This document shows positions 8,536-64,000 of a stretch of 64,000 nucleotides of DNA, in pieces (within the stretch, counting starts at the first letter, position 1; the number at the start of each line of letters is the position of its first letter). Below the pieces are notes generated by a model. The model saw only the letters and a list, made by a program, of their open reading frames with translations, ran no database searches and was not told the origin of the DNA. Location of the stretch: the NCBI GenBank assembly GCA_000320545.1, contig ADNK01000828.1:1-64000 (forward strand), in the 5' to 3' direction. The translations under genes were made by a program, and so were the position numbers. The DNA is from Bigelowiella natans CCMP2755. Lineage: Eukaryota > Protista > Cercozoa.

Positions 8536-9499
8536 ATGATCGTGTACGCTCTCTTCGTCGCTTGGAACGTGCTTGCTGGGCTTGTGATACGTTGGTTCGG
8601 AGGAGGGTTCCTCTCCACCCTCCTTGGGTGCCTAGGGAGCTCGGCGTGGATGTTTGACATGCTCTACCTCCTCGAGTTTCATGTGAGAGCTTACTACAGC
8701 CTCAAGCGCTTTCACGAGAAGGGTCCAATGCCTTTGACAGAATGGCATGAGATTGCGCAAATAGCAGCCCCTATGGACATCGATATATTCGGTCATATGA
8801 ACAACGCCCGCTACAATCGAAGGGCGGAGTACTCGAGGTGGTGGAGTTAAAACCATGGCGTGAAAAAAGATATTTCATTTTTCGTCTGCATTAAAAACTC
8901 AAGCACTTTCTTCCTATCTGACCCATCGTGCATCTAACACGCTCAGAATAAGTTACTTCATTGAATGCGGTCTGCGAAGAGCGTCGAATGGGCTTGGAAT
9001 TCGTGGGGGCATCCTTAAAAGCATGGCGATGCGGTTTCGTCGGCAGATCAACCCCTTTCAGACTTTTAGTATCCGTATAAAATTGATAGGGTGGAAGGGG
9101 AAGGAGTTGTATTTTCAGCAAAGAATGGTGACAAAGGATGCCCGAGGGGAGGAGTTCGTCAACGCCTTCTCCGTCTCGATCTATAAGATTCCCAGGAAAA
9201 GTAAGTACAACGCCATCGATATGATTAAGGTTATAGACCCGGCCTTCGCGAAGACAGTTGGAACAGATTCTTTCTTATCAGATGATCCTAACGACGATTT
9301 GAAAATGGAGGATAACTCCGAATCAAAGAGTATCTCATCTGCAGCTGCAGCACAACCTCTATCATCACAATCCAGTAACGGCCAGCAAGAGTCGACTGAG
9401 CGGCAAAAGAAAATCAGTGTTTCGGATCTAGTTCGTGCATACAATCGATTCGAGGAACTATCCAGCACCTATCTTAATCCTAATAGACTTCGCAATTAA
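8536..9499 (+). CDS. Thioesterase (hot-dog fold, THEM6/4HBT-like) with N-terminal hydrophobic segment; 2 exons (8536-8837, 8947-9499)
   Basis: Motif DIDIFGHMNNARY followed by MRFRRQINPFQTF is typical of THEM6-like thioesterases. The phase-2 intron joins YSR|ISYF in frame. Confidence 0.85.
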
Positions 9500-10279: not shown

Positions 10280-13200
10280 TTAAATGACTTGAACTCCAAC
10301 CTTGGCACACAGTTCTCTAAACTTGCTCAGCTTGTCCTCCGGAACAAGGGACCGCAGGGCTGATGAAAGATACCCCTTACGCTGATCTGAAAGCTGAGAT
10401 AAGGACCTCGCAATGTAGCCTTCAACGCCAGGGACATCCTCAAAAGGATCATGTATTCGATCCCTTGAGTGCGCTAGCCGAGTACCTCGAACGCCTCTAT
10501 CGCCCTCGTCTTCGAGCACGGACAGATAATTGTCCTTTTCCGCGGGCTCCGCCGATGCCGAAAGCAGAGTTTCAATGAGCGCTTTGAACATGTTTTCGGG
10601 AAGGCCTGGTATGTCCCATATGGTCCCATCCTCCACTATCATTCGCGTGGTTGCAATAAGTGCTGCCTTACGGCGAATGCGTGACTTGATCTTAGGGAGG
10701 AATTCCGTCCAGAAACGAGCTTGGATTCGACCAAGAGTCTCAGCATCAAGTTTGGATTTTAAGACTGTGATTCCATGCTTCCCGACCAACACACTCAGCA
10801 GATTCATCACCGGGCCGAATCGGCGTATCGAGAGCGGCACCGTGTTCGAGCGGCCGAGCTTCTTCACGCATGGCGCAAGAATTCTCTCTAAGACCGGAGC
10901 CAGCAGTTGCGCGTCGAGGGTCTCCACGAGCCCAACGAGGACCTTCATCCCCGACTGCTCTGTCCTTCTGCTTTGCATCAGAAGCTCAGCAACACGTATG
11001 ATTTGGTCAACCACATTGCCCTGAGTTGCTAGAAGCTGCGCACATCCCTTCTTCAGGTAGGCCTGCAGCAATCGTACTAGTCCCGGCACATTGCCGGCCA
11101 TCTGCCAATTACAAGGGGCGAGAATGGGCTGAAAGAGCGAAAGATATGTAGGACTGATATCTCCTGGAGTGGCCTCCAGAAGCATGGCTATCACTTGGAA
11201 CACGTACGGCATCAAGTCCTCAAGCTGCGATTGCAGAATCTCTTGGAAAAACGGAAACAGGGCGGCTTCTAGCTCTGCCACGACTGCGAGCAGTTTTCCT
11301 GTTGCCGCCGTATCTATCCCCCCCTCACCTGGTTGTGGAATTGAACGCCCCTCCGCCATTGCCGTTGAGAGCTGCACGCGCACGACAATGGCCAACGTCT
11401 CGAAGAGGTCATGAGTGAAAGTCGTATCTGCGCATTTATTCGGCTCGACAGTGAGGCGTTTGACCATGGTTGTAATCCCAACCATCACTTGCGGGAGGAG
11501 CGGTTGGATGCTCTTAGGAGGGGAGAACCCAAGCATGTCCATCAACGCGCTCATCGCGTACTTGTTGTAAGGCCATAGGTTGTGCAGGTAGCTCTCCGAG
11601 GTAATGATTTGCAATAAGGGATCGAAGGTTTGAACAAGCACGCTGTGTACTGCTTCTGGGGAAAGCTGCCTGCGGAACTTGTCGCCAATGGGAGTCATCG
11701 TCACAAACCGCTGGAGAATCGCTGCCGTGTAGGAATGGACGACGTAGGAACTCGATTTGAGCAGCTTTGTAAGGGAGGGGGTGATGGCGAGTACGTCCTC
11801 CTGCGACAACTGCAACCTGAAGACCATGAGCGCCTTGAGAAGTAGTGCTATGAGCTCCGGTTGTGTCTTTGGCCCTACCGTGGCGAGAGATGCGAACACT
11901 TGGTCTTGTAAGAACTTGGCAATGTTTACCTTTGTGTTGAGGGTTGTCGCTCCGTATTGTCGGATGGTGCCCTTGATAGATACAGCAAGGAAGAGACTCA
12001 GCGCAGTGTACTTAGCTTGCCACCTGTCGTTGTCCTGTTCAGGGTCATACTGATCCATCAGTCGCTCGATGTGCCGCATACACAGTGATGTCACTTCGTC
12101 CTCAAACTGGACTAGGAGCCTGCGGATCAGATCAGTTGCGGATTTTGACCGAGTGCTTGTCTGGGAACCGTCAATGTTGTCCTTGACGTAGAGATAGGGA
12201 CTATCTGCAAAGCTCTCGCGATCTGCGTGGCGCATCATGAGGTTGGGGATGCAAATCCGCTCGACAATTGCTGCAATAGCCCCGTCCCCCTCGAAGAGGT
12301 TGCGATTCCAAGGCTGCCCTGACACTGTAGTCAAATAGCCAATGGCGTTGGTTACGAGGCGGTCATATGTCACATCCTCTCCGTGAGCGATTGCAATAGT
12401 CCATACGTCCCTTGTTAGTTGCGACAGGAAAGGCTTGTACTGGTCCTCATGCTTACCAACAAACAGGGAGAGGGCTTCTACAACGTTTGTGTGCAGTTCC
12501 AGGAGCTGCCGGTCGCTCTCCGAATCTATTCCCAGATCAAACTGCCCACCGTCCGTACTTTTCGAGGTAGAAGCGCCTCGGATGAGCAGCAACTTGTGAT
12601 ACATCGTCATCCACTTCGCTATCGTGTCCTCGAAGAAGGCCGGGAGCACGGTAGAGCAGAACGTAACATGTATGCGAGTCACGAATCGAAGCACCTTGTA
12701 GATATAAGCTTTCCGGTCGTCCTGTGCGGTGCCAAGTTGTTGTTGTTGTCCCTGCTCCGCATCAGCTACTACCATGTCGGTAAGGGCTGTAAAGACTTCC
12801 AGTATGGGCTGCTGTAGCGTCTCCAACGAAAAGCGCAGCTGTTCAATTTCTCTTGTTGATACTTCGGGGTCGCGGAATCGTTCCAGAACCGAATCAGCTG
12901 CTTCAACAAGCCCGGCCATCGCTTGGAAGTTCTTGGCCCCCAAATTGGCCGCAAGACGATCTCTTATCTCCGGCAGCAACGACAGCCATTTTTGCGGGAA
13001 ATCGTGCATCGCGATCGCCTAGTAACAATAGCATAGAGAAATCAAGAACACGCAACACATATATCATCCACGTACTTAAAATAATAACCCGGCAACCCAT
13101 ATGGTGTGAATTATCATTGCGATTCCCAAGCTATAAATTTGTCGTTTCGCTTTTCTTTTTTTCATGGTGGAACAATTAACTACTGAAAATCGTAAGGAAT

Positions 13201-13892
13201 ACATTATAAACTACCTGGATGGCGTCTGTGAGCTGCTGCTGCGCTATTACAGGAACATCGCAAAGTAGTTCCAAGACGACTCGTTTCACTTCAGTCTTTT
13301 CTGGTTCTGAGATGAGGAATTGCGGATCTTTCTCATCTGTCTCATCCACAGCATCGTCATCGTCTGGTTTAAGAGCCCAATGTGCCTTGACCGTATTCTT
13401 GAATCGGACCGCCGCTGCCTGCAGCGCAATGCTGCGGGGGTTGTCCTTACGGTGGGCTATAATGCTCATCAGGTTATGCAGAAATCCTGGTTGCTTTTCC
13501 ATCGCAAAAATATTCTTCTCTGCCTGAGTTCTCTCGAATTCACTTACGCCGATCAACGATTTTTCGAAGGCCTCAGCAAGCGCCTGCTCGCTCCCTCCCC
13601 GCAACCTTGTTACCATGTGCATCTGGGGACGTCGAGGCAGAGGAGGAGGCGGATAAGGGGGGGCTACAGCGTATCTAGGGGCGCTAGCACAACCTTTGGA
13701 GGCCGCTGCCAGGGATCCACCACCACCACCATCATCGCTAGTGGTTGTTCGAATAAATGATGATGATGATGATGGTGATGATGATGTAACTATGGAGAGC
13801 AACATACTGCCCAAGCTCCTCCCACTTGGAGTAGTGTTGGCTTGGAACTTGCATCCCCCACTTCGCCCTCCTTTTATTCCTATACAAACCAT
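10280..13892 (-). CDS. CSE1: Exportin-2 / CSE1 (importin-alpha re-exporter) with N-terminal extension; exons ~13892-13215 and 13018-10280
   Basis: Importin-beta N-terminal domain (AEKNIFAMEKQPGF...AAAVRFKNTVKAHW), then AIAMHDFPQKWLSLLPEI, W..K..AL.L, VHSYTAAIL, NKYAMSALM and FPFFQEILQSQLEDLMPYVFQV, all characteristic of CSE1. The CAG|gtag...tag|GCG intron is in phase 0. Confidence 0.9.
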
Positions 13893-14337
13893 TATTGTCA
13901 GGCAAGGGTATCAAGAAACAGACTGTTAGCGCATGCGAAAGAGGGACATTTCTCATCTACAATTGTGTTGCAGACCGCTGCTGCAGTTTCCCCTGTTGTG
14001 GGCGGCCGTCCTTTGTATGAGCCCTTGCAGGGCAATATGTTGCAGGAATAAACATGTCACCAAGATGCAAACCGCAGCTCCTCCCTAATTTCCAGGACAT
14101 CGTCAACAAGGTGAAGTGTAAAAAAAAGTAACAAAGCATTCCTCCATTCCTCCCCTTGACCAATCAGTGACTCTACGCAGTTCTTAGCAACCCTGTCGTT
14201 TATAATACAATCGATTTCCACAATATCTAAGCCTAATCTTCATCCTAAGGCTCATTAGTGCCAACCCGGTGACGTGCACTGGCGTGGCCGCCTCCGACCG
14301 CCATTCCCAGGAGTTAGCAGAATTTGACCACGTCCCG

Positions 14338-14542: not shown

Positions 14543-15184
14543 ATCGGCACTCAAAACGATCAATTTTGGCGTCCTGTCCCATCATCCTTTCAACTGCTCC
14601 ATGAGCAACACTTCTTTCTTTCTTTCTGGCGGCCATTCCCACATGAGGGAGAAATTGGACGGCATGTGGTGTTTCCTGTTCACATTCCGTAACCAACCCT
14701 TTGCGCTGTGGAGCACCCGCCCCACACTTCACTTCCCCACTGTCAGTGCTCAGCAGCAAAAATTGCCAAAATGCGCAACGTGAAAGTTTGCCCACTGACG
14801 ACCTGCTGGCTGAGGATGAAATGAAATGCATGCGTGCGCTAGTGCAACTTGCAGATCAAACGCTGTGCCACAATTTTGCTGAGGCCTGCCTGGACATGTT
14901 TCGTGCGCATGCACTAGCTAGTGGCCAGCACGGTGGACAGCACTGCTCGCAGCACGCACTGCTGTGCAGCAGGTGTGACATGCTCCACCTGCTGCTGGTG
15001 CATTGTTCATCCAGAAATGCATCGTGCACGTCTAGACGTGTGCGCGCTGCACATGATCGATCTAGCGATGTCACATCGAACGCCATCATCAGCTAGTCAG
15101 GGACATGTCTAGACGTGCGTCACAGCAGATGAAGAGTCAGTGAAGACATCGCAATGTGCGAGTTGCAATTGATGATGCTCCAAA
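14543..15184. other. TpA-depleted intergenic tract (relic element)
   Basis: Manual count: 8 TA in 642 bp, 7 of them in CTAG. CpG is common and TG/CA is abundant. Confidence 0.85.
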
Positions 15185-15317: not shown

Positions 15318-17887
15318 CTAGCGCCGTGCAATAAATCCAATTTCTTCTTCGCTAAAACCGTGTGGACGTGGAACCGGGGCACCATACTTCGAGTCCAAAC
15401 TGCTACTGCTTGAGACACTACCTCGTGAGCTGAGTCGTCCACCTCTACGCCTACTTCTATAATGACTCTGGCTACATCCATTCGTGCCGCAGCAGTATCC
15501 TATAGCACCGAATATCAATGCGCTCAAGAAAGCCACTGCTACATAAAGAGCAATCTGCATGGTCCCATTATATTTATCGTTATCGTTGCTTCCTTCGCTA
15601 CTGTCACTTTCGCCCCTTCTAGATGCATATAAGGAAGTCTTCATTAGAGAGCCTTCGCGGATCGCGCAGCTGACCCCTGTGAATCCTGGGTCACAAAAAC
15701 ACTTTCCGTGGCGGCACATACCCTGAGAAAACGGAGGTGGTGGTGGTGATACATATGGTAGAAAATCATGGATAAAGTTTAGTGCCCTGAAGTACGCGCA
15801 TGTCGCAGCATGAAAGGAGTAAAAAGTACTTTGATGATTGAACAAAATGTGGACGGATAACGCCGTGTCACAAAAGAATAACTCAAATTATGGAAAAAGG
15901 TGGAAGCTTTTGTTATCCTCTCTCCCTTCCCATCTTTACCTTTCCATTGCAAGATTGAGGACAAGGGATCACGGTGTCGCAAGCTTTGCCCATATAACCA
16001 GGATCGCAGTAGCACTGAAACCACCGGCACTGCCCGTGACCTCCACACACTTGGTTATTTCCGACGTCCTTGTTGTGCGAGACCGGGCATTGTTGTTCAA
16101 CGGAGCAGTCTAATAGTAGATAAGCATATCGATGAGGAATGGTTGGGTAAAAATATATGTGTAGCATATGCGTTAGTGAGAATATGAAAAGCAACCTGCT
16201 CCTGTGTAGCCGATTGAACATTCGCAAGTGCCATGAGAGCACATTCCATGAAACGAACAGTTGTTTAAGCACCCACTGCGAGTTGATTTCCGATTTAATT
16301 TAAGTACGCATAAAACATAAAAAATAGATTTACCTCAATGCGCCGTGATTCGGGGTGTTAATAGGGGCTGAGCAGTCAGAATTTCCCCAGCCGGGGTCGC
16401 ATAGGCATCTGGTACGAACGATGTCAGAAAAGCAAAAAGCGGAGAAGGAGGGAAGGGTGATTAGAGAGGCAAGAAACCAGGGAGAGAAAGGTGAGAATTA
16501 ATTAAGAGAAGGGGAATACTAGGGAGTTGTAGAATAAGAATGTTGCACCTTCCACTCACGCAAATTCCATTGTTACTGCAACTGGGGGTCCCTGGGCAGT
16601 GTTCATGCTCAGAGCAATCCTGGCCTTTGAAGCCTGGTTCGCAGTAGCACTGGCCGTACATACATTTACCCTGCCGGTTGCAATTTGAAGGACAAGGCAT
16701 CTGGTATACCAAAAGACCATAAACACTCTTAGTGATGAAGAATCATGGAAATTTCTAGACTCGAAGTAGAATAATAAAGTGAAAAACAATATGGGATGCT
16801 ATAAATATGAACTTCAACAGATTAATTACAGCACTGTGGTACACGACTATTCTTTTTGCTCACTTTAAGTTCACAGGTAGTTCCGTTGTAGCCAGGATCG
16901 CAGAAGCAGCGCCCATTCTTGCAAAGCCCTTTTTAGTTTAACGAAGGTTCATTTCATGTGAGCAAAAAGTTTGAAAAAGATTTGTTTTGTGGATAAGATG
17001 TGTCAGCTGAAAATAACAAATTAAGCCCGACGAATTCTTCTTATGCCAAATTGTCCAAAGGCTACCGTGATCGCTGCAATTATTTCCGCACATATCCACC
17101 GAACAGTCATCCCCTGTATATATAAATGTTAGCACAGGTTCTTTTAAGGAAAAAGAATTATGAATGACCCGTAAACTGAGGGAGGCATTCGCATATCCCA
17201 TTGACACAGACACCATTCATCGAGCAATCATTTGGACATCCTTTAGCAACGCTTGCAACGCTCGTGGAGAGGGAAGCGGGTTGAGTCCACTGGATTATTG
17301 GATCAAGCAGCCTCTTGCACCTAAAAAGAGATTGAAATATTAATTTGCGGCACTTAATTCCAAATATATGTTTGCTTCTTAGGAACGTACTCTGAAGCCC
17401 TATGGCATTCTGCAGCAGCCTCCTGCGTTGTCATGTTAGATTTACTTCCACTATTTTGTGTGCGCACAGCTTCCCGAAGCTTGAGCCATTCGGATACTAT
17501 ATGACCGCCATGACTGGATATTAATTGCTGGCACTGCTGGGGAGGGGATGCGATAATTATCTCCAGGGATGATCCTGCCCTGCCTGCATTGTTTTTATGG
17601 TGTACTGGAGCGGTATGATTTTTCCCTTGGAAGGGAGAATTACTACGATCTCGGAGTTGTCGTGGTGTATTTCTAACGACTGCGTCCCTCAGTACCTCCG
17701 CGTCGGAAAGTTGTCCAAACTCAGGTGCTACTTCAATAGATGCTGAATCGACGTATGCTCTCAGCATAGACGCGGCACCCTCGGAGTTGTGCCGCATCTC
17801 AAGATTGGAAGAGAAACATAAAGGGACAAGGAGGAAATAGGCGGCAATTTGAAGGGTTCTCCCTCCATGCCCCAGCCTGGGCGCCAT
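15318..17887 (-). CDS. Type I membrane protein with signal peptide, 7 tenascin-type EGF repeats, a TM helix and a short cytoplasmic tail; multi-exon
   Basis: Spliced exons give [81 protein letters not shown] and four more repeats. TM segment IALYVAVAFLSALIFGAIGYCC; signal-like LQIAAYFLLVPLCFS. Confidence 0.85.
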
Positions 17888-18534: not shown

Positions 18535-19742
18535 ATGGCTGCCCCCGACCAACCTGCCAACGCTGACCTTCAGAAGTTCCTTGCTGCGTTTAAAGTAGCT
18601 GACATCGTCAAGGACAAAGATGAGCTCTTCACCATCAGCTCCACCTCGACGGTTGAGGAAACCCTCAAATTATTGGTAACAATTCATTTTACCTAATCGT
18701 TGGAGATGTGAATTTAGAGCAGGACCTGTGTCTTACATTTTCAGGAAAAAAAGAGAATTCTCTCAATGCCGGTGGTTGACGAGAAGAAAAAAAAATATGC
18801 AGGAATTGTTAGCATATCAGATATCGTGATTGCTATTTGCTTCAACCCTTGCTTCGCCAAACTTGCAAAGGGCGGTACAATCGACGATCTCACTCGTGAA
18901 GATATGGAGAAAATCATTAGCCGCTCAGTATTAAAGAACGCGGTTATCGATCTTGTTGGGGTTACTGAGGAAGGCAAAAACCTCTGGACTTTCGACGAAA
19001 ATGATAACATGCTCAAACTTGCAGAGTACTTTTCGCAAGGAGTCCACCGCGCCTTGATAATGAGGGAATCTGGAGGCCCATGCCTGCTCTCGCAGACAGA
19101 TTACGCAAGGTGACACAAATGCACAACGTACTCGACGACAGACGAAAATGAATATGTACATTTTGCAGATTTCTCTGTAATGAGGTGAAGAAATCCAAGG
19201 ACAAAAATATCGAAGATCGGCTGAAGATGTCACTCGAAAAGTTGGGATTCACTGGACAGAAAGGGCCAATAATTTCAGTCAATGACAAGGAAACTGCTCT
19301 TGCTGGCTTCCGCCGGCTCCTACAATGGCATTCATTTCGTGATTGGAATTTGGCTGCCATGCCTGTCATAGACTCAAAATCAGGGAAAATTATAGGGAAC
19401 CTCTCTGAGTCTGACCTGCGAGGACTTAATGAAAACAGGCTGTTGGATCTCCTTTTCGTGGTGCCGATGTACCTGAAAACCTTTTACGGACAAATGAAAA
19501 AACCGTTGATAGCCTCACCTGAGACAAGTTTTGGAGACGCATTGGACAAGGTATCGCCGCACACCAAAACACTAAGAGCTGATATTTATGATGATGACAT
19601 TTTATGCTATTTTCAGTTGGTCGAATCCAAAGTTCATCGTTTGTGGATAGTTGACAAGAACGAGAAACCTATTGGCGCATTTTCTCTCTCTGATGTGATT
19701 TCACAATTCACAGTATTCGGTTTTGCACACGAGAAATCATGA
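18535..19742 (+). CDS. CBS-domain protein (AMPK-gamma/SDS23-like); exons 18535-18675, 18745-19109, 19169-19550, 19617-19742
   Basis: CBS motifs ILSMPVVDE...GIVSISDI, GVHRALI, LAAMPVIDSKSGKIIGNLSESDLR and KVHRLWIVDKNEKPIGAFSLSDVI. All three introns are GT-AG and phase-consistent. Confidence 0.85.
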
Positions 19743-20127: not shown

Positions 20128-20829
20128 CATACTGATTGGCATTAGCAAGTTTCTGTCCCAAAAAGATGTACATCAATGCATGTTGTAAAGCAAGCAAACA
20201 TTGTCTGCACAGATGGTTTACCCGTCGAGCGGCGTGCTAGCTGCGAAATTGGACCCAATGCAGCTCTTGTAAGAGCTTTCATGTGTAGTTTTATCAAAAA
20301 TATCAATTGGCAAATGCATGAAATGCCAATTTCAGTCAAAGCCACACTCCAATTGCTGATTGCACCCACTAGCACAAATGAACATGACCTGCAACCACTT
20401 CAACAAAGCTAGAAAGTTTGCTGCTAGCATGGCTAGGCGAGATGCTGTGTCATGCAATTAAATTCAACTAAAACAATGAAACTACTAGCTGTTCATCTGA
20501 CCGCAGCTACTTGCATTCCAAGCACGCGCTACGCCCAACAACCACTAGCGCAGCTAGCTAGCTAGGATGGACCTGCATTGTGAGGTCAACAAACATGAAT
20601 TTGTTTCCCAACACTAGTACAGTGTGAATCTCATGATGAGTTGTGACTTCTTCTCAATCATGTTGGTGTGCGTGAGTTTTGCAACGCGTCGTCTAGTCAT
20701 GTTTCGACGAGTTTCAGACTTTCCAAAGCTGCAGCACAGGGAGTATTTGGCAGGAAAAAACACCGCTCTTGCCATGCATGCCACGGAACACATTGTGTAG
20801 CACTTAATCCTACCAGCCATGTCGATGGA

Positions 20830-33234: not shown

Positions 33235-33630
33235 TTAAATTAAAGTGACATAGATATGGAAACGACTTTGTCGTGAATCTCACTGCCAGCTCAGAAGCAT
33301 GACATGGATGAAATCTGATGGAAACGTGCGCTACTAGGCTAGCTTATGCTATGGCATGTTGCGACAATGCGATGCGCCCCAAATGGCCGCTTGAGCTCTC
33401 ATAAAGTACAATTTGCAATATTTGCAAGTGTGTGTGTCCTAAGGTACACGACACACATGCACGCGCAAGCTCAAAGAACCGCACCTCATTGCTGTTGGTT
33501 GTCGCATCACTAGATTTAGAGATCAGCCCTGTCCGCCCGGCTCATTGTTTGCCAGCGAAATAACAATGAGCTAACAATTGAGCGCAAAACGCACCAACAC
33601 GCACGTTGCATGCCACTGGACTGTTGCCTA

Positions 33631-35187
33631 CGTGGCCCCATGCTAGCCGTGTGTGTCTGTCGATCTAGCAGCTGTCCGGATCCGCAGCACACCCACATGT
33701 GCATGCATGCAACGACGTGTACGAGTCGCATGTGCACGTGTGTCAGGGCCCTGACACGTTGCAGCAACGTGAAACACACTAGCACGTGCATTCCACAATT
33801 CATCGCAGCACAGACATGCACCCGCCCGGTCATGCCAAGCTAGCAAGCTAGCAAGCCTGACACAGAGTTGCACATGCTAGCTAGCACCAGAGCATGCGAT
33901 GCTCTGTCTCCGTGCTGATCTAGTGATCACACCAATGGACCAGGTCCAGGTGCCGCCTTCTCTGGCTAGCTGGTCTAGTGGTGCTGGCGCTGGCTCTGCA
34001 GCTCAGCAGTTTGGCATCGTGCGGTCAAAACGCTGCTGCCACCCGCTAGCCCGCCTGGTGCGCACGTCTCTAGGCCTGGCGAAGGTCACCTGTGAATCAC
34101 ACAGCTCTGTGCCTCCTGCTGCATGAGCTCATTCGTCATCGACTGCACACAGGTGAATGATGATGAGTGAGGCACAGGCAAATGATGATGATGAGTGAGG
34201 CACAAGTGAACGAATGAACGAACACACACGAATGGTTCCAATGTGATGTGCTGGGTTCGTTCGAAAGGATCGGATCATCAGACGTGCTCTAGCAGTGCTG
34301 ACTCGTGTGATTCTAACGTTCCTGCGTTGTCCAAGCAACTGCAACAACTGAACGCAACGAGCCAAAAACAAAGATGCAACGAAAGAAAGAAACGTTTCCA
34401 TTGAAGTGATTGAAAGGATCATGGGACACGCTCTAGCGCTGACATCCGTGCCCTCCCGGATCAACTGGACCACCAAGGGAAAATGTGAGTGTTTGTTTCA
34501 TGTCCGGCCACAGCACTTGAGTGAACGAACTTGACGCTGCACAGCTAGACAGCGCTGGAGCGGGCGGAGAGCCCACAATCCAAATCGAACGATTCACGAA
34601 AGGAAATTGAACGCACGAGTGAACGAGGCAATTCCAAAAACAAGCTTTTGCTTGTCCCCAATTGTGACGACTGAACGAACGAAGTCCAGAAGCAGTTGCA
34701 CAGGAGCGATTGAAAGGATCACAGGGCACGCTGGTTCACCCGTGTTGCATGCACCTCCTCAATCAACTGGGCCGTGAGAGACACATGCACACACTGCACA
34801 CGTGTGCTCAGTCTCTTTTCACACCATTTTTTTTCCAACTGCATGTGTGCTGTTCACAGCTCCACGTCCACCAAACAAGTGCACACACACGTGCCAGCAT
34901 GTGCTGCCAGCTCTGCTGTTTGCACGCGGATGCACGTGCACTTGTGTGCCAACTTGTGCCGTGTTTCGTGAGCAAACGATTCCCAGCTAGACAGTGACAG
35001 CGAAAGCATTGATGTGTTTTTCCACGCACACAAGGCAATGGACACGCATGCACACTGGCACACATGCACTTGGTCTCTTTCGATCACCAGAGAAAGTTGA
35101 AGGTTTGTTTCACTTCCGCCGGCCACGCACTTGGAACGAAAATGACTGGACGGATGACCTGGCGACAAAAAAGAAAATGCAGAATCC
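33631..35187. other. TpA-depleted tract with degenerate internal repeats (relic element)
   Basis: Manual count: 18 TA in ~1560 bp, 16 of them in CTAG. Repeated gaaaggatc... units at ~34264, 34413 and 34712; gtttgtttca...ggccac..cacttg at ~34491 and 35103. Confidence 0.85.
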
Positions 35188-36484
35188 TAATTTCACACTG
35201 TGCTCGTTGTCGCACATCATAACTCAGATGTTTCTTCGGGCATTTTGCCTTAACGGTGGTCAAGGAAGAAGAATTTTGTTCTTTTGGTCCCGACGGCCAC
35301 ATCACCAAGCCACTGTGCTAGAAATTTCATGCGATCTTGAGGGCATCGATGGTACCACGTCCGTGTTGAAAACTCGGTTCAAATTTGGTGGAATTCCCAA
35401 GAAATATCGTTTGGATTTTAAAAGACATTTATCGGTGAATTTGCAACAAAACGAGTGTAACAGCACTCGTTGTCGATCCACGTTGTCGAAATTCATCTCA
35501 CTTGGATCTTATCCCCCACCACCCATGCGGTCTCGTTCCGATCCCACAAGGAAAAGGACGCTCCTACCCCTCGGGTGCAACCTGATTGGAGACAAAGTAA
35601 GCTCGATGAAGAATCAGTCTCTAACGGAATCAAAGAAAGATTCTTCTCTTTTTCATTTACCTGTGCGAAATGGTTGGTCTCCTCATCAGACCAGGCCCAT
35701 AGGAACACGACTCTCAGTATGCAATAAAACTTCAGCGCATAACTTAGCCCGTCCAGGGAAAAGGAAACTGTTAAGACGACCTTCACATAGTATGCAGTTA
35801 GTATATCAGCCTGCAAATTCACGAGGTAATCACGGCGGCTTTTCGACATTGCGAGGGAGCATTTCTCTTCCTTCAGCTGAGGAGCAACTGAGAAGGCATC
35901 CATTTCGTATGTCTTGGAAGGAGGATCTCCCACTTGCAACGTCAGAGGCTGTAAAATGTGCGAGGTTCCCAGGGTGTGTAAGATCGAGTACCTCGTTTCA
36001 AGTTCAGCGAGGAAATGCGCGTGTCAGATCGGAATCGGCGTCATTGACGCCATCATTGATGTCTCGGAAATTGGATAGGAACAGTTCAATCATCCCACGT
36101 CGCGTAAATACAAGTCAAAGTCTAGGGCCAGAAATTAGTTCATCAACAAGGAATGACTCTTTGGATATTGCCATTGAAAACTCGAAGAGTGCCTTTTCGC
36201 CAACTCCACCTAAAGCTCGACATCCACGAAAATCAAATCATGATGAAATTGGATTGAATTCTGCGCTTCCATTGAAGAAAAACAGAAGACCATTAATTGG
36301 GAGTGTCAATAGTATTGAGATAAGTGAGGAAGAGTGGAACAAGCTTGAGAAAGACACATGCATTTCTTCTCTGGAAATGTTTCAGACTCGAGTTGTCGAT
36401 TCAGTATCACCGGAGCAGCAATTGAAATGGAAACATGAATGGTTGGCGGCACAACAAGACTCGAACAAGCAACAAGAAGCCTAG
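34994..36484 (+). CDS. Intronless hypothetical ORF (496 aa; the real start may be internal, e.g. ATG near 35524)
   Basis: Long open frame, S/R/P-rich, with a short ordered-looking C-terminus (LEMFQTRVVDSVSPEQQLKWKHEW). The first ~65 codons lie inside the TA-free tract, where TAA/TAG cannot occur. Confidence 0.45.
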   Translation: MTAKALMCFSTHTRQWTRMHTGTHALGLFRSPEKVEGLFHFRRPRTWNENDWTDDLATKKKMQNPNFTLCSLSHIITQMFLRAFCLNGGQGRRILFFWSRRPHHQATVLEISCDLEGIDGTTSVLKTRFKFGGIPKKYRLDFKRHLSVNLQQNECNSTRCRSTLSKFISLGSYPPPPMRSRSDPTRKRTLLPLGCNLIGDKVSSMKNQSLTESKKDSSLFHLPVRNGWSPHQTRPIGTRLSVCNKTSAHNLARPGKRKLLRRPSHSMQLVYQPANSRGNHGGFSTLRGSISLPSAEEQLRRHPFRMSWKEDLPLATSEAVKCARFPGCVRSSTSFQVQRGNARVRSESASLTPSLMSRKLDRNSSIIPRRVNTSQSLGPEISSSTRNDSLDIAIENSKSAFSPTPPKARHPRKSNHDEIGLNSALPLKKNRRPLIGSVNSIEISEEEWNKLEKDTCISSLEMFQTRVVDSVSPEQQLKWKHEWLAAQQDSNKQQEA

Positions 36485-37653
36485 AATTTTGGAATATATG
36501 TTTCAATTCTGCCCGAAATATTCTCAGTGTGAATCTCGCTAACGCAACATCACTGCGTTCTGCTTTAGTTCAAACACAGTTTAAATATCTGCTCATGCAA
36601 CCCTGAGGGAGTTGATCAAAGGGGGAGAAATGACTTACTTTATGAACTATTTGTGCTTTGTTGTGGTTATGCTTCCATGAGACTTGGAATGAATGAAATG
36701 AAACTCCTTAAACGTTGTACACTAGTAGGCCTATCCGATGTTTGATTTTGTGCATGTTTGTCTAGAATTTAAATCATCACTAGTAGGCCTATAACATTGT
36801 ACAGTGGTATCTCGAAAGTAGTCGTAATCGTTGATCGTGTTTCGAAGTAGGAGCAATGTGACAGTAATTGATCGCAACTTCTCACAGTATTCCGACTACA
36901 TGTGATCGACAAAGATGCCAGAGTACAACTAGCTAGGCACTTATGGCTGCGTGTCGCTTGTCATCACGACCGCTAGGCGGCAGCAAAAAATCGTGTTGTA
37001 AACGCAACTCATTTTATTGATCGACACTACAAAAGCAGCGCTAGTCCTCAATCGCGCATATGTGCGTACACACACACACGTTCATGTAGCTAGATCGATG
37101 GCCACAAACTTCAGCTGCGATGCACTAGCTTGCCGACTACCCGAGCCGCTTTTTGCGTTGCTGGGCTTCACAGGCTTGTGATGATGGACACGATAATTCC
37201 GCAGCGTTAACTACTACGCGCGCTTTGTCATGGTGCGGTCGTCCACGCTACCGCCGGCTATGCCATTGTGTTTTCACACCCCAAAACTAACGCTTGCAGC
37301 GTTAACCCTACTATGGGTACATGCAGCACAGCATGCATGCACGTACGTTGTGTGTGGATGACAAACTGAGATGAGCAATGGAAAGATGAAACGAATAAAG
37401 ACAAACAATGATATAGCACTCTATCTGCTCATGGTGCTGCACGTACCGTCACGCGGCGCCGTGCTAGTCAGCGCTTGCGATCATGGCATTGTTCGCCATG
37501 CTATGTCAATTGTACTTACTGAACATGCAGCTTGCTACTACACTACGTACGCCGCGGGCATGTTTTGGCGTTGCGTACAGCACACGTACACCTTGCTAGC
37601 TTGCACACACACACACACACACACACATATATGTACATACATACATTAATATA

Positions 37654-37880: not shown

Positions 37881-41413
<3,533 letters not shown>

Positions 41414-42981: not shown

Positions 42982-43765
42982 ACAAGCTAGCTAGATCGAC
43001 AGCTAAGCATGCATGTGTGTGCCGCATCAGAATGTGTGATGATCGAGGGATGTGATGAACAAATCAAATTCGTTCAATGGTTATCCTGATGTGCAACATG
43101 ATGTGCATGTAGCTGTACGTGCAATGCAGCGGCATTGTGCAGGTGCATGCTTCACCTGGAGCGATTGGTGCACGTGTTGAACCAAGTGCATGAAGGTTGA
43201 GACACATGTTGTCAAGCAGGCACACCTAGACACATTCATTTGACATGGAGACACGCGTGTTGTGTAGACATCGCATCGAATAGACTATAGTAGATGCCTC
43301 ATTGTATATGTCCACATAATTGTTGAACTTGTTTCGTTTCTTTGACCACCGCAACTCGATCAGCATGCAAATTTGTGGGCAACTGTTGGACTCTCCTAGT
43401 CTCTAGCATTGTTGCGAACAATAGACATACGTATGTATAGTGCGACAACATTTGCTGGCGCTGGCGCTGTGCTGTGCGTGCAATGCAATGAAGAGACACA
43501 TGCAATCTCGATGCAACTTGCTTGTGCCAAGTTGCTGCACTTGCGCGCGATGCTGTGCAAAAGGCACGATGCTAGAAATATGTTTGCAAATTACGGACTA
43601 AGTATTGTAAATGCGATATTTGAGGAGCTACCAATCCCTACAAACCACTACTAGAGAAAATTTTCAGTACTGTCACATAATCGTCACAAGTGATCAATGT
43701 AATGAAGCATAGATTCCAGCTCCACCTGCGTCCTTTCATTGTCATCATCTAGGAAAATTTTTAAT

Positions 43766-44354: not shown

Positions 44355-46096
44355 AACTACCCCAGTGCACTAGATTATGTACCATGGCAAAAATTCCGTG
44401 CGAAGCATACTCTTTAGCGAGTTGGTCGTGTAGTCTATTATAATAAGTCACACAGCAGCAGCAGCAGCCAATTCATAACGTGATCACTTCTGCTAGCTAG
44501 GTATCATCATCATCATCATGAAATTGTAGATAGAAGACTATATAACCAATATATCGCTCAATATGACTGTCTTTCTATGGACACACCTACTATACCGTCT
44601 ACTACCTTGCTATCCTTAAGTTCTCTCTTTCACATGTAATCCGCTTCAAGATGCACAAGGCGATAAAGGTGTGTCTGGTCCGCCTTTCAATGTTTCGGGC
44701 GACCGATGTCGCATTTGTTTTCATACCCCCACTGTTGTTGTCCTTGTAGCTCTTATTGCTAGGACGGGCTCTCTAATTACGATTCATCGGTGCTGCTTAG
44801 GGGTGATTGTAATGATGCATATACTGCTGACTATGATGATGAACTACGATAGTGGTGGTGGTGGTGGTGGGTGACGTGGAAGACTGATTGTCCGACCTCT
44901 AGAGTGGAGGCTAAGTTCATCAACCGATTCAATGCTACGATCTATATTATCAGCAAGACAACGACCGATAGCGACGATGATGATATAAAGCGACAGACAC
45001 ACCAAATGGACTACTACTACTCAATCTATTGTCATTATCATCTAGTACGGAGATAAAGGAACGACATCATCTTACTGATAATGCTACTACTCAATTTATC
45101 GTCATCATCTTGTAGAGAGAATGCCGAATCTTCTTTCTTGTATACTTTTCATTGGAAAGAGATGCTCACCTACCCACTCACCCCCCCCCCACCTACCTTT
45201 TCACGGTCCCCGCAGCTAGGACATTCATCTACTCAACAGACAAAAGAGAAGGATGTGGAGATAATTCATCTACTCAACAGACAAAAGAGAAGGATGTGGA
45301 GATAATTCATTGCTGAAACTACTCAACAGACAAAAGAGAAGGATGTGGAGATAATTCATTGCTGAAACTACCACCACCACCACCGCCTCCATTACTAGCT
45401 GCTACTACTACTACTACTAGGTTAATATTGCTTAGTTAATCTCGCCTACACACACACAAACACACACAAACACATACCTAGGTTGATTTGCATGGTTTGA
45501 CCACATATCGTGCACAACACACCGCGCCATTTTTCATCGATGACAATCTGCGGGGTTGTCCCTCCTCCTCCTCCTCCTCCTCCTTCTCCTTTTCCTTTTC
45601 CTTCTGCATCCAAGTTCTCTTCGTTTGGCATGAAGCATTTTATACAGCCTTTGCATCTACATTTGAACTTATACTGGGAGAGAAGTGCACGCTGTCGGTC
45701 CTGGACGCTCATTTTCCCGACCTATCATAGATTTCCATGACAGTGAAGATGTACTTAGTTATGATGATGATGAAGGCAAGTAAAACGTATCATCTTCTCT
45801 ATTTAGCGATTATGGGATACTACTACTACTACTACTGCTACTGCTACTGCTACTTAATCCCATACTGCTGTTTTCATAACAAACGATGATGATAATAATG
45901 ATGATGATGATGATGATACCACGCCTACCACTATATCGAAGATATATATTTACATATATTTTATATTGTATTTTGTTGAGAGCATACTTGTGGGCCATAG
46001 CAAGGTAAAACTCGACGCTGAGTTTCGATATCCTGTGTAAGTGTGTGTAAGTGTGTGTGTGTGTGTGTGTAAGTGTGTAAGTGTGTGTGTGTATAT

Positions 46097-59101: not shown

Positions 59102-60221
59102 GAGCTTGCTAATCGTTGAAGAACCCTGTTTTTCGGCGGAAAATTCATATCTGTTTCTGAGCGAATCGTGAGTCAATAATCATTGTTACTTCATGTGAAA
59201 TCCAGGGCTTATCTTTGGGTCACGAGAAAATGTGATGACAGCTTAAAATCAAGGAAAAATGACAAGCAGTCCAATCGGTCATCTTTCACGTCTACGATTG
59301 ATAGTAACATTTACCTAATTATTACTGTTTTAATTCATTAGGTCGTCACTTTGGTGTGCTACTCCATCAATGTAGACAAGTTCGGAACATATCTAATAAA
59401 TTGCCGGACTTTTCTAAATTCCTTACATGTATCCTATATTGTATAGAGGTTTGGCGCATATGGCAATGTTGCGTACGTATTATACTTTTGCCAGCAAAGC
59501 TAAGATTAACTTCAGGCCTGCACTCTCTATATAGCTCCCGCTGAAATAGAGTCAATTGTAAATCTTTGGCTCACTTCGCATGCAATGCTTGTCAAATTGC
59601 ATCTGTACACGTGCATGCCCGCGGTGGCTAGACATCACATCTGCTAGACATAGCTACACATGCGACAAGGCACGAGTACCCTGCTAGCCTGCTAGCTGAG
59701 TGAAGGACAAGATACATTTTCATTAAGTGTAACGTAGCGCCGTTATCATGCATGTACACAGTCTACCTTGACATATAGGAAATGTTAACATTTCCCCCTA
59801 TATATACGACTAGTTGTCTCATGCATGCAATGTGGTGGCAAGATCATAGGTCAAGCTAGTCGACGCGTGTCTCCGCATGGCTACAAAAATTAGCACATAG
59901 CATGTTATTATATGTCATCGGCTACTGGAATGCTTATGTATACATGCAGCGCATACAAATTCATGACGGACAACAAGTTACTCTTAGCTACATATGCTAC
60001 ATGCCGATGTACATGAAAAATGAGCTTAATTCAATTTTACTTCGCTTTCTCGAACGATACTAAATCGCTAGGCACATGTGTACAAATGTTTCATGCTCTC
60101 TTTCCTGGCAGCTTTGCATCGATGACGACCACTGAACCATCATCCCTAAGAAATCATAGCATGAAATCTCTAATTAGAGTGCGGAGTTTGAATTGAGAAC
60201 TAGCAATAATTTTGCAAAAAG

Positions 60222-62026
60222 CTACATAAATTTGTACCGGACAATAACATTAGAAAGATTGTCGTCAATGTCCATGAGTTTTTCTGTGTCCGGCATGGCG
60301 TTGATCTTCTCCATAAGATTCATCAAGGCTGTGAAACCTGAGGAGGCAATCAAAAAGTTATAAGACCCAGAACTGCGATTCTTACAGGAGAGATGATGAT
60401 GATGATAATGATGATGATGATGATTGTCAGGGGACCTTCCTTACTCTTCTTGGCGCCTGAGATTTCGTCTATGCTTTTAACTCCAAAATACTTATTCCCA
60501 ACTTTACCCTCAACAAACTCTTTGAGAACTATAGGATACTCCTGATAGGCGTCCGCTGATGCACGATTGCTTCCAAAGAATATTGTTCCTACAGCTGGAG
60601 TAGTCCGACAGACATTTATTCTGTGATTCTTGCAAATGTTGTAGATCCTCATCTCGAAGCTCGCCATTTTCATTGAGTGCACGCCCTCCAACCATGGGTA
60701 CGTGTTCTCTTCAGATGGCTGACGTTGATTGATAAGGCGATATACATTGGAATTCAACAAAAGTTCACAAGAATAAGATCATTTCAAAGAGCATAAGTTC
60801 ACAAGAATAAGATCATTTCAAAGAGCATCTACGATACATCCACAATGCTACTGAAATAAGTCCCTTGGGACAAATGTCAAATATAAAGTAGAATTCTCTC
60901 AAGAGCATTTTCTTAGCGCTGCCACTTACAGCAGGAGCAGTAGCAGTATGTATTTCAGGTTCTTGCTCGATAATCGGAAGCTTAACTCCCCAATGCTCGC
61001 CTGTCTTTCTCCAGAACAAGCCCTCGACGCCCATGCCAATGTAAGTCCTATCAATTCGGATTTGCGGCGAAGTGATTAGGTTTTACGAGGATCGGAAACA
61101 TATAATTGAGAGTAGGTTACCATCCCCCAGTGTTAGCCATCTCGACAGTGTAGTCGTCGTTTTTGGAGATTTTCTTGAGTGCTGGAAGTGACTTCTTTGT
61201 GAAATGTAGTGTCATCAATCCCCCAGGACCATCAGCCTGTGCAAATCCAATGTGTTTTCTCCAACTCAGTCGTACACTTTTTCCAACAGGAAAATCGTTC
61301 AGGTTCGAGGTTATTTCCTTTGATGTGAATAATACCTACCTCAACCAAAGCGTCCCTCATGAAAGTAGGATGTTGGACGATACAACCAGTTCCCGGAGTC
61401 AATAGGTTACCATCTTCGATTTTACATCTCCCCTTTGTGTCGTTGAGCTTCCCCCCTGATATAATTACAACATGCGAGTGATTTCCGGTTGCAATCGGTG
61501 AGAGCAATGGAAAGGGGGAGGAATAGTGTGAAATATGCACGGTATCCACAACAACAACAAAAAATAGTAGTTAATGAGCATGAAGATTATGATATAACAA
61601 TGTTGACGATACTGTTGTTAATGGTGGTAATGATCAGGATGGTGAGGAGGATGAGGAAGGAGGAGGATAGTGAAGGTGTCGACGAAATTACGGTGATGAA
61701 TTGCGTTGAGAGCGCCATCAGCTGCAATTATGTCCTGATTTTTTTGATAGCAAAGTTCTGTTATGTTTATCTCACTATTGTATACTCTGGCTCTTCTTTT
61801 CTACGCATCTATCTCCTTTATCTGAGTATTTTCTCTCTATTCCGGGCAGGACACAATTCTCGAGAATTTCCCTCGTTGCATCCCTCATCCCAAACACTCT
61901 GAAGCCGATATATTCCATTTGCACCTGCCCTTGCGATTGGTCTTTATGAAGTCCAGCGCTATCCACTCCTTCTAATGCAACAACAAGCGTCAAGAGTACT
62001 GTGTGTACTGCTTTACTTCCGTGCAT
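60222..62026 (-). CDS. Hypothetical secreted multi-exon protein
   Basis: Signal-like MHGSKAVHTVLLTLVVALEGVDSA. GT-AG exons such as EITSNLNDFPVGKSVRLSWRKHIGFAQADGPGGLMTLHF and final GFTALMNLMEKINAMPD...RYKFM*. One junction near 61050 is not resolved. Confidence 0.55.
60761..60828. repeat. Perfect 34-bp tandem duplication (intronic)
   Basis: aagttcacaagaataagatcatttcaaagagcat occurs at 60761-60794 and 60795-60828. Confidence 0.95.
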
Positions 62027-62321
62027 ATCGAGGGACTGGGGTAGGATTCAAAAATGTATCAAAATTTTGAAACGATCTCCAGGGACTCTCGTTGTTGTTG
62101 TTGTTGTTGTTGTTGTTATTGTTGTTATTGTTGTTGTAGTTGTTGTTGTTGTTGTTGTTGTTGTTACCATTTTCTCTCCTAACATCGCCGGGAGACTCGC
62201 GAGATCCAGCGCAAAGAGGCAGGGAGCGGCAACCGATCAACATCCACTATGAAAATCACTTCGGTGTAACAACATAGCTGGGAAGTCAAGGGCGCGAAAA
62301 GATTAACTAACTAACTAACTA

Positions 62322-63556
62322 ACATTGTTTCTTGTTTCTTGTTTGGCACTGCGTTTCGGACCTCACTGTTTCACAACAGCTTTCTGGAAGTTCCTGCTCA
62401 GAACAATTGGATTTGGACCTCACTCACTGAAGTTGGTTCGAGGATGCACTGCGTTTCGCACATTGCAAACGTCTTGCAACACTTTGGAAACGCAGTTCGA
62501 TCATCGTTCATTGCAATTGGTTCATTGTTCACTGTTCACAGCAGAGTGCCAATTTTCAAACGCTGCTGGTTTCACTGGTTGGTCCTCACTGAAGCTCGTT
62601 CGAGGCACTGTGTTTCGCATGTTGCCAAATTGCAAACGTTTTGCGTGTGACGTTTTGGAAACGCACTCCATCACCACGTTTGCTTTTTTTGTTTGTTCAT
62701 TGCAAGTGATGTAGTTCTTCATCATTGTTTCATTGTTTCATTGTCGTGCAACACTTTGGAAGTGTGGTCGATCAGCAAACTTTCTTTTTCTCTCTCTTTC
62801 TTGCGTCACACAACCCCAGCTGCTGACGACAACTTTGCTGTGACTGCTGCATGGTGACTGGGGAACAACTCTGCCTCACAACACCGGATGGTTTCAAGGA
62901 AGCAAGCCAAACTTTCAAACCACTTGACTTTTTGGAAACGAGCGCGGAGTGTTCCAATGCCGTTGACCAACAAGGCAAAATCAACTTTCTCAGTTTCTCT
63001 GTTCAACACGTTCAGCTGCAATGTGGAGCAGGTCGTGCGCGTGATGCATGTCGTCTGTGACAGCAGTCGCACACACTTCACGGCGGGAACAGTGTGTCAC
63101 ACGCACATCGCGCGCATTTTCCACAGTCCAGCGATGCACAAAGTGGGAAAGCAGAATTGTTGATCACAAACCACGGTCTCAAGTCAATCGCACAATGCTG
63201 GAATGAGTTCTGTCAGTCTGTCAGCCCACGCGCGCGCAATGCTGTGACCAAAGCGTGAGTCAATTGCAACAAAAGTGCTGCTTGCCAACTGACCGACGTG
63301 CCACTCTGGCACTGCTAGACTGCTTGCATGCGTGTGCACCCGTCATGTGCAGCGACACGTTTGTTGATGACTGGCATTGACCATGCTGGCATGGACCAAT
63401 TCGACAAATGCTGCAATGTGAGGTGCACGTGCACAAGGTGTGCATGTGCAACAAAGATCCTGTCTGTTTTTGAGATGATTGTTTTCATTTTTTTTGAGAT
63501 GGTTGTTTTCAAATTTTCTGTTCAATCAATGCCGCACAATGAACATTGTGACCAAT
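62322..63556. other. TpA-depleted tract with degenerate repeats (relic element)
   Basis: Manual count: only 2 TA in 1235 bp (62712 in GTAG, 63316 in CTAG), with many CpG. Bounded on the left by a (TAAC)n run. Confidence 0.9.
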
Positions 63557-64000
63557 TAAAATCATGCCCTCCTTCGCAATTACTGTCGGTGAGTTGGCCT
63601 CATCTAGCGAATGATGGCTACATGTCGGTTGCTGGTCAACACAACAAAGGACAAGCGCTCGAAATGAAATGTGGCTGCCCCCCTACCCACAAATATGATA
63701 TTTCATGATTTATTTGAATCTGCCGGCATCTCGCTGGAATGTGCATCTGCTATGTCTTTTAATGTTCTGATAACAAAGGGGGGAAAGAAGAATGAGCGAT
63801 GAAAACAATGTCAGAAGCGATTAGAAGTTGGTAATTAAGAGAAGAATTCTTACAAACTAAAGGTATGGATATAACTATCATCAACAGGATAAACATCTTT
63901 TCACCTGAAGAAAAGAGCTATAGTCTTTAAATCCTCCCATGTTCCTACGAAGCGGATGGCCTCTCTTGGCACATTTGTAATGATGAAAGACTTCTCCTGC

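Follow-up and report, generated by a model that had tools for sequence, protein, structure and literature searches.

In clonally propagated mutation-accumulation lines of Bigelowiella natans, two integrated-virus regions together acquired 231 new mutations. Of these, 230 were A>G or T>C changes, all of them on TpA, and no A>G change outside TpA was seen (Mettrop et al., bioRxiv 10.64898/2026.01.13.699255). The mutation rate in these two regions, an integrated NCLDV and a virophage region, amounted to about 6e-7 per site and generation. A scan of the genome in 1-kb windows resulted in 124 clusters, a cluster being an operational label for at least three consecutive 1-kb windows that have a Rho TpA of <= 0.43 together with a Rho CpA+TpG of >= 1.52. 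Genes poor in TpA were linked to transposon and viral domains, and the authors included TE-like and unannotated sequences among the targets of the process. As responsible enzyme they put forward the TadA/ADAT-type protein ADAT2 (Bn78255), a structural candidate only. Our literature search returned no paper on this process besides this preprint.

Two further types of system can be compared. Fungal RIP, a premeiotic process, requires at least 80% identity over at least 400 bp (PMC3017866). ADAR and TadA/ADAT2 convert A to I, which is read as G, and favour U or T 5’ of the edited A, a preference also seen in the DNA described here. The hotspot of ADAR is 5’-UAG on dsRNA, while for TadA/ADAT2 5’-ACG on tRNA is listed (PMC10661471, Table 1).

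We analyzed a stretch of 64 kb (in the following “the window”), the host of which is B. natans: the alanyl-tRNA synthetase (AlaRS) encoded at 37884-40852 on the minus strand is identical to B. natans Bigna1|53113 in 819 of 819 residues, and its nearest relatives are chlorarachniophyte proteins. The exon of this gene at 37884..40340 (minus strand) is located outside hypermutated DNA. The genes of the window are ordinary host genes with introns, including, in addition to AlaRS, a thioesterase-like gene (8864-9496, plus strand), CSE1/exportin-2 (10283-13910, minus strand), an EGF-repeat protein (about 15321-17430, minus strand) and a CBS-domain protein (19152-19739, plus strand).

Three tracts between these and other genes have lost nearly all of their TA dinucleotides. 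The most saturated one, tract A (62322-63556), contains 2 TA (GTAG at 62712 and CTAG at 63316), whereas 84.6 are expected from its base composition (O/E 0.02). Tract B (14543-15184), flanked by the EGF-repeat gene with its 3’ end and by CSE1 with its 5’ end, has 8 TA versus 36.5 expected, and tract C (33631-35187) has 18 versus 84.9. These numbers agree with a preliminary description of the same DNA, in which 2 TA instead of dozens had been counted for tract A and 28 for all three tracts (28 TA over 3434 bp in our recount). In the window as a whole the O/E of TA is 0.75. When the stretches of the window without any TA are ranked by length, the first five (604, 442, 392, 241 and 219 bp) are all inside tracts A–C, and outside the tracts the longest one measures 211 bp. 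TG and CA, correctly described before as abundant, are both raised to an equal degree, with O/E values of about 1.55-1.97: we counted 138 TG (1.63) and 135 CA (1.97) in tract A, 71 and 70 in tract B and 158 and 171 in tract C. Both TpG and CpA are produced, which means that both strands are acted on. CpG, described before as plentiful, is at an ordinary level: tract A with 56 CG (O/E 0.81), and the tracts altogether with 0.73-0.81, show no enrichment over the value of 0.80 found window-wide.

The preliminary description had named an assembly or consensus artefact as one way in which its observation could fail. We compared the tracts with contigs from other DNA sequencing runs. Contigs of runs X3, X7 and X13 match tract A (62297-62677/62723/62738 and 62745-63719/64000) and those of X3 and X13 match tract C, in each case with 0 other letters; positions 62739-62744 fall between the matching pieces listed for tract A. 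This comparison uses assembled contigs, the runs probably represent one strain and X13 is a possible source of the window sequence itself. Nevertheless, letter-identical contigs from other runs make an artefact very unlikely, and we assign this explanation a negligible probability. Between the runs and the window no new mutations were found at tracts A and C, where almost no TA targets remain.

A segment scan with a score that ignores CTAG yielded 16 segments. Tracts A–C reach scores of 41-97, and the next three segments (11-16) define two partial tracts, which were taken from the best 6 of the 16 segments and are absent from the preliminary description. Partial tract D (20304-20796) contains 18 TA, 11 of them in CTAG. 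Partial tract E (about 42985-43580) contains 24 TA, namely 6 in CTAG, 9 in CTAH/DTAG and 9 in DTAH, and 23 TG+CA per 100 bp. All five tracts are non-coding, intergenic and located near genes, with sizes of 0.5-1.6 kb. They have almost no mutual similarity but one common signature; tracts B and C have a patch in common (34378-34428 versus 14575-14625, 76%, inverted). The borders, which had been described as sharp, are so at the left edge of tract A, which is abrupt because it adjoins the TA-containing tail of a repeat. To the right of tract B (to about 15400) and on both sides of tract C (33300-33630 and 35188-35400), however, the loss of TA fades in graded halos of about 200-330 bp.

Applying our own version of the formula of Mettrop et al., we obtained a Rho TA of 0.02 and a Rho CA+TG of 1.78 for tract A, 0.22 and 1.76 for tract B and 0.21 and 1.69 for tract C, all of which pass the published thresholds. 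Sliding-window ratios, proposed in the preliminary description as a genome-wide check, pass within the window only over tracts A, B and C; among fixed 1-kb tiles 2 of 64 pass (34001-35000 and 63001-64000). The tracts are too short to carry the cluster label: there are no three consecutive qualifying tiles, and the window ends at position 64000.

The tracts thus resemble the system of Mettrop et al. in the species, in the conversion of TpA to TpG/CpA on both strands and in passing the thresholds. They differ from the active regions of that study, which are 25-186 kb of viral DNA still containing TpA, by being short (0.5-1.6 kb), saturated and intergenic and by having no match in the viral sequences scanned; part of tract A is a high-copy repeat. 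That one and the same process is responsible seems to us very likely. The conversion of A:T to G:C at TpA on both strands, as suggested in the preliminary description, matches the mutation spectrum published for the same species. Its mechanism was therefore probably right, but the accompanying statement that no described system does this is superseded by the 2026 preprint, and natural targeted A-to-G hypermutation of DNA having already been reported in B. natans, our tracts reveal no new system. What is new is the detail of sequence context described below, in which CTAG is converted last and TAG slowly.

RIP or decay of 5mC as cause was rejected, in agreement with the preliminary description: these processes run in the opposite direction, whereas here TpA is destroyed and CpA and TpG are gained. 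RIP and the B. natans tracts have in common dinucleotide-specific transitions on both strands, an association with repeat-containing DNA and a compositional scar. RIP, however, changes C to T and makes TpA. A partner of the kind needed by RIP (at least 80% identity over at least 400 bp) does not exist today for tract C or for 62818-63556, and RIP is premeiotic, in contrast to the B. natans mutations observed in clonally propagated lines.

The few surviving TA are not distributed evenly over the sequence contexts, a property that is missing from the account given in the preliminary description. In tracts A–C 24 of 28 surviving TA are part of CTAG (7 of 8 in tract B and 16 of 18 in tract C), compared to 4.05% of background TA (P = 7e-30). 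For the partial tracts D and E the fraction is 17 of 42 (Fisher p = 9e-14). All 15 other NTAN words are reduced to 0-8% of the background level in the tract cores, as expected for a TadA/ADAT2-type enzyme with T before the edited A. TTAA, for example, occurs 0 times in the cores versus 22.1 expected (both strands), and 3 times in the partial zones. CTAG is slow to convert and not immune: the ratio CTAG:(CTGG+CCAG) decreases from 25:7 in the partial zones (11:0 in partial tract D) to 24:38 in the cores (p = 4e-4) and 1:10 in tract A. The spared CTAG is likely a fingerprint of the responsible enzyme.

Because CTAG is palindromic, a rule acting on one strand, by which the A of T-A-G is slow, suffices to account for its persistence: in no site but CTAG do both strands read TAG, and hence CTAG survives longest. 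Such a rule predicts that CTAG is slow on both strands, that CTAH/DTAG sites are intermediate and that DTAG is converted mainly to DCAG. In the partial zones (1993 bp) DTAH sites reach 0.39 and the half sites CTAH/DTAG 0.65 of their background density, a difference that does not reach significance (p = 0.08). Simulations of the one-strand rule give the same order for these zones (0.30-0.32 for DTAH, 0.51-0.55 for half sites). The ratio of products, DTGG/(DTGG+CTGH), amounts to 87/216 = 0.403 and is 0.39-0.43 in each tract alone. With the other DNA of the window as stand-in for the source sequence, a symmetric model results in 0.484 +/- 0.033, and 0 of 48 simulations were equal to or lower than the observed value. 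The ratio becomes 0.359 with strong avoidance of a 3’-G and 0.400 when TAG reacts at a relative rate near 0.2. Avoidance of a 5’-C (C-T-A slow) was rejected, the predicted ratio being 0.618 versus the observed 0.403. We infer that a G following the A slows the mutator about five-fold, and avoidance of a 3’-G on one strand probably contributes to the pattern.

With a TAG rate of 0.2 the cores should further retain about 7 half-protected sites; 2 were seen, so that CTAG may have extra protection. This shortage is in line with an alternative that does without an intrinsic +1 preference: the whole CTAG would be shielded by a base mark or a protein, or CCAG/CTGG would constantly be turned back into it through C->T decay or palindrome-templated repair. 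Shielding or regeneration is also favoured by the density of CTAG in tracts and halos, which is 3-6x background and beyond what TpA editing can create, by the CpG-type variation among repeat copies described below and by an excess of short perfect palindromes in tracts A–E over trinucleotide-preserving shuffles (4-mers 361 versus 310 +/- 12, 8-mers 41 versus 27 +/- 5). The symmetric model, however, produces the deficit in DTGG, which is present in each tract alone, in 0 of 48 simulations, and CTAG declines instead of rising with saturation. The methylation motifs given for ChlorV are not CTAG (10.1101/2025.11.19.688996). Moreover, CTAG-rich DNA with normal TA exists in the window at 36450-37500 (11 CTAG) and 59501-60000 (6 CTAG). 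Both regions are intergenic and rich in alternating purine-pyrimidine words and are possibly similar to the DNA from which the tracts arose before editing, which suggests that the excess of CTAG can be inherited. Altogether we consider a shielded or regenerated CTAG unlikely compared to a slow reaction at T-A-G. That CTAG is a sufficient attractant of the mutator was rejected as well, because these CTAG-rich intergenic regions keep normal TA.

Returning to the slow reaction at T-A-G, we looked at related copies of the tracts. The left ~500 bp of tract A include a dispersed high-copy repeat (62414-62817) with an internal duplication of ~80 bp (62423-62494 / 62585-62665, 73%). Its summed contig depth reaches up to about 230-270x single-copy, a rough value that does not equal copy number. 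At an identity of >=80% the rest of tract A (62818-63556) occurs in a single copy, and so does tract C except for patches of ~25-50 nt common to other loci. Most copies of the repeat are already erased. Among 40 of the 41 variants of the repeat copies 37 are located in tract A, and 6 would give TA beside their neighbours in the window sequence, the variants being unphased. Depth arithmetic forces TA states in other copies at three sites only, each containing TAG. At 62576-7, where the window reads CTGG, other copies have CTAG and, judging from depth, CCAG for the most part; at 62596-7 CTAG accounts for no less than 15% of the depth in X3 and 34% of that in X13, and 70 of 89 RNA reads carry it; and at 62493-4 other copies show GTAG. 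One site among the copies thus presents the ancestral CTAG along with both one-step products, CCAG and CTGG. Many other variants are CpG<->TpG/CpA or ApT<->GpT/ApC and not TpA changes. For loci related to tract C we evaluated by eye 11 distinct 30-letter loose ends of contigs (19 of the 43 listed, minus 4 duplicates, 3 outside the tract and 1 short). These contain 7 TA, 3 of them in CTAG, 3 in CTAH/DTAG and 1 in DTAH. Judged by their sequence, repeat copies and loose ends support the TAG rule beyond the window; as the variants among copies are unphased, they inform on the direction of change at the tract loci indirectly.

On its left side tract A borders on the end of a different, high-copy element that carries a (TAAC)n tail (62238..62323, plus strand). 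TA is intact in this element end, which forms the abrupt border. Its summed depth is 190-430x single copy, and several contigs match 62238-62314/62323 and then diverge. Going by the tail, 62238-62323 probably represents the 3’ terminus of a non-LTR retroelement, for which a younger insertion would be the simplest reading. RNA reads at 62238-62323 are mostly from the plus strand, and copies vary at the word GGGCGCG in a CpG-decay-like manner. The RNA fold of the repeat tail is not notable (z = 0.35).

The abrupt left border could also be expected if the tracts were insertions from a TA-poor source that were never mutated in place. The related loci represented by the contig loose ends are TA-poor, too, and no TA-rich ancestor was recovered: the viral, phage and metagenome sequences scanned yielded no ancestral or unedited copy of a tract. 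In detail, tract patterns had 0 matches in viral contigs and metagenome contigs, blastn of the tracts against phages gave no match, and a scan of metagenomes for CSE1 led to 21 pattern matches with 0 confirmed relatives. Six-frame comparison of tracts A, B and C with Pfam (18 frames) resulted in 5 weak matches, none at cut-off and no viral or transposon domain, and Rfam had no match for the tracts. A TA-poor source would, however, leave unexplained why five nearly dissimilar tracts share one signature, why halos are graded with intermediate survival of TA and why CTAG, CCAG and CTGG coexist at one site among copies. In addition the process has been directly observed in B. natans by Mettrop et al. 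We regard an origin from a TA-poor source as very improbable and hypermutation in place as the preferred reading.

When comparing the tracts with simulations we noticed that the O/E values of AT, GA, CC and AC deviate from every model in which TpA alone is mutated (0/48 or 48/48 simulations equal to or lower than observed). The O/E of AT is 0.83 for the tracts overall, 0.69 in tract A and 0.85 in tract C, and ApC/GpT are above the TpA-only simulations. The deficit in AT ranks the tracts in the order A, C, B by saturation. AT, GT and AC states were found among the repeat copies at 62453-4, 62462-3, 62469-70, 62490-1 and 62762-3. These data hint at ApT as a possible second target in a slower tier, but CpG decay overlaps most of the five variable sites, and Mettrop et al. 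saw A>G changes at TpA only. Neither this possible tier nor the exemption of CTAG/TAG nor the graded halos are part of the main text of the preprint, which contains none of the terms CTAG, trinucleotide, tetranucleotide, flanking and context; its supplement may hold context data.

With regard to the chemistry, we hold deamination of adenine to be, on balance, the probable reaction, and ADAT2 would be a candidate for the enzyme. Alternatively, the same targeted process could act on the T side, the thymine of TpA being modified, as in the oxidation of thymine to 5hmU/5fU, or an error-prone polymerase placing G opposite T. Lesions on the A side and on the T side leave identical scars, so sequence alone cannot separate the two, and under T-side chemistry the context rule simply becomes “T after C is slow”. 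The T-side reading gains from the fact that the deaminase of the preprint is a structural candidate, and polymerase eta is known to mutate at WA hotspots (PMC7884765). A polymerase of the WA type should, however, erode ApA, whereas AA/TT in the tracts has an O/E of 1.15, the same as in TpA-only simulations, so that the preference of polymerase eta fits poorly. Also the spectrum of the preprint consists of transitions only and of TpA only. We judge T-side chemistry to be rather improbable.

For the deamination of adenine the context rule allows a comparison with known editing enzymes. UAG, the hotspot of ADAR, corresponds to the slowest and best-surviving context in the tracts, which weakens the analogy to ADAR drawn in the preprint. 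In the tracts, moreover, it is DNA in which the change has become fixed, and both strands are affected. Editing of RNA before reinsertion predicts a bias of A>G for one strand, in contrast to the near equal numbers of TG and CA in each tract. For the +1 preference of engineered TadA our literature search gave no usable source. No member of a deaminase family was found among the 118 ORFs of the window that were scanned (out of 538 ORFs >=55 aa).

In our overall reading, which we consider reasonably probable, the tracts are what the TpA-specific A:T->G:C hypermutation of B. natans leaves behind once it has reached saturation, and this hypermutation follows a context rule. An enzyme, likely a deaminase of the TadA/ADAT type, is predicted to convert the A of 5’-TA-3’ to inosine on either DNA strand. 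Its target would be silenced, repeat-containing DNA, in which replication would fix inosine as TG or CA. T-A-H would react faster than T-A-G, and CTAG would slowly be converted to CTGG/CCAG. The enzyme could be targeted via heterochromatin, its activity spreading a few hundred bases into the flanks. A chromatin state with H3K9me3/H3K27me3 has been described on TEs and repressed genes of B. natans (10.1101/2025.03.17.643675), and guidance of the mutator to the tracts by this state would be plausible. Concerning DNA methylation, PMC9998398 names only DNMT6 in Rhizaria, and PMC12344493 does not mention DNA methylation in B. natans. A more far-reaching version, which we put forward tentatively as possible rather than probable, is that the mutator is a DNA adenine deaminase with the preference T-A-H > T-A-G > ApT, which, besides giant-virus insertions, hits hundreds of intergenic repeat relics of less than 2 kb, spreads 200-300 bp and, by sparing CTAG, is unlike ADAR.

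The fingerprint of CTAG converted last and TAG converted slowly can be used in vitro to accept or reject ADAT2/3 or other candidates, and it is directly comparable with the 231 mutations of the preprint. If the mutator is such a graded deaminase, its sparing of CTAG would allow the enzyme to be tested directly in vitro. The ratio of CTAG to CTGG+CCAG can serve as a clock ranking tracts by their saturation. Furthermore, short tracts without a viral match beside housekeeping genes are among the targets, a fact of relevance to the aiming and confinement of the mutator.

Finally, we looked at transcription in and around the tracts. Almost no RNA reads map to tract C, with a depth of <1x in run X21 (about 6% of the run read). 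At 63424-63726 minus-strand RNA reads of X21 overlap with the right ~130 bp of tract A (63424-63556). They probably represent the 3’ end of the neighboring gene, and they indicate that transcribed DNA can sit within an erased tract. RNA reads on the repeat part of tract A can derive from other copies. A stop-free frame of 497 codons without Pfam match extends over 34991-36481 (plus strand). Its first ~65 codons are located within tract C, and the start of the frame may be open only through the loss of TAA/TAG.

The short perfect palindromes of tracts A–E include one of 14 bp at 15027 and one of 18 bp at 33740; background DNA has no excess of palindromes when compared to dinucleotide shuffles. 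Exact tandem duplications are located at 45223-45371 (41/49 bp) and 60761-60828 (34 bp).
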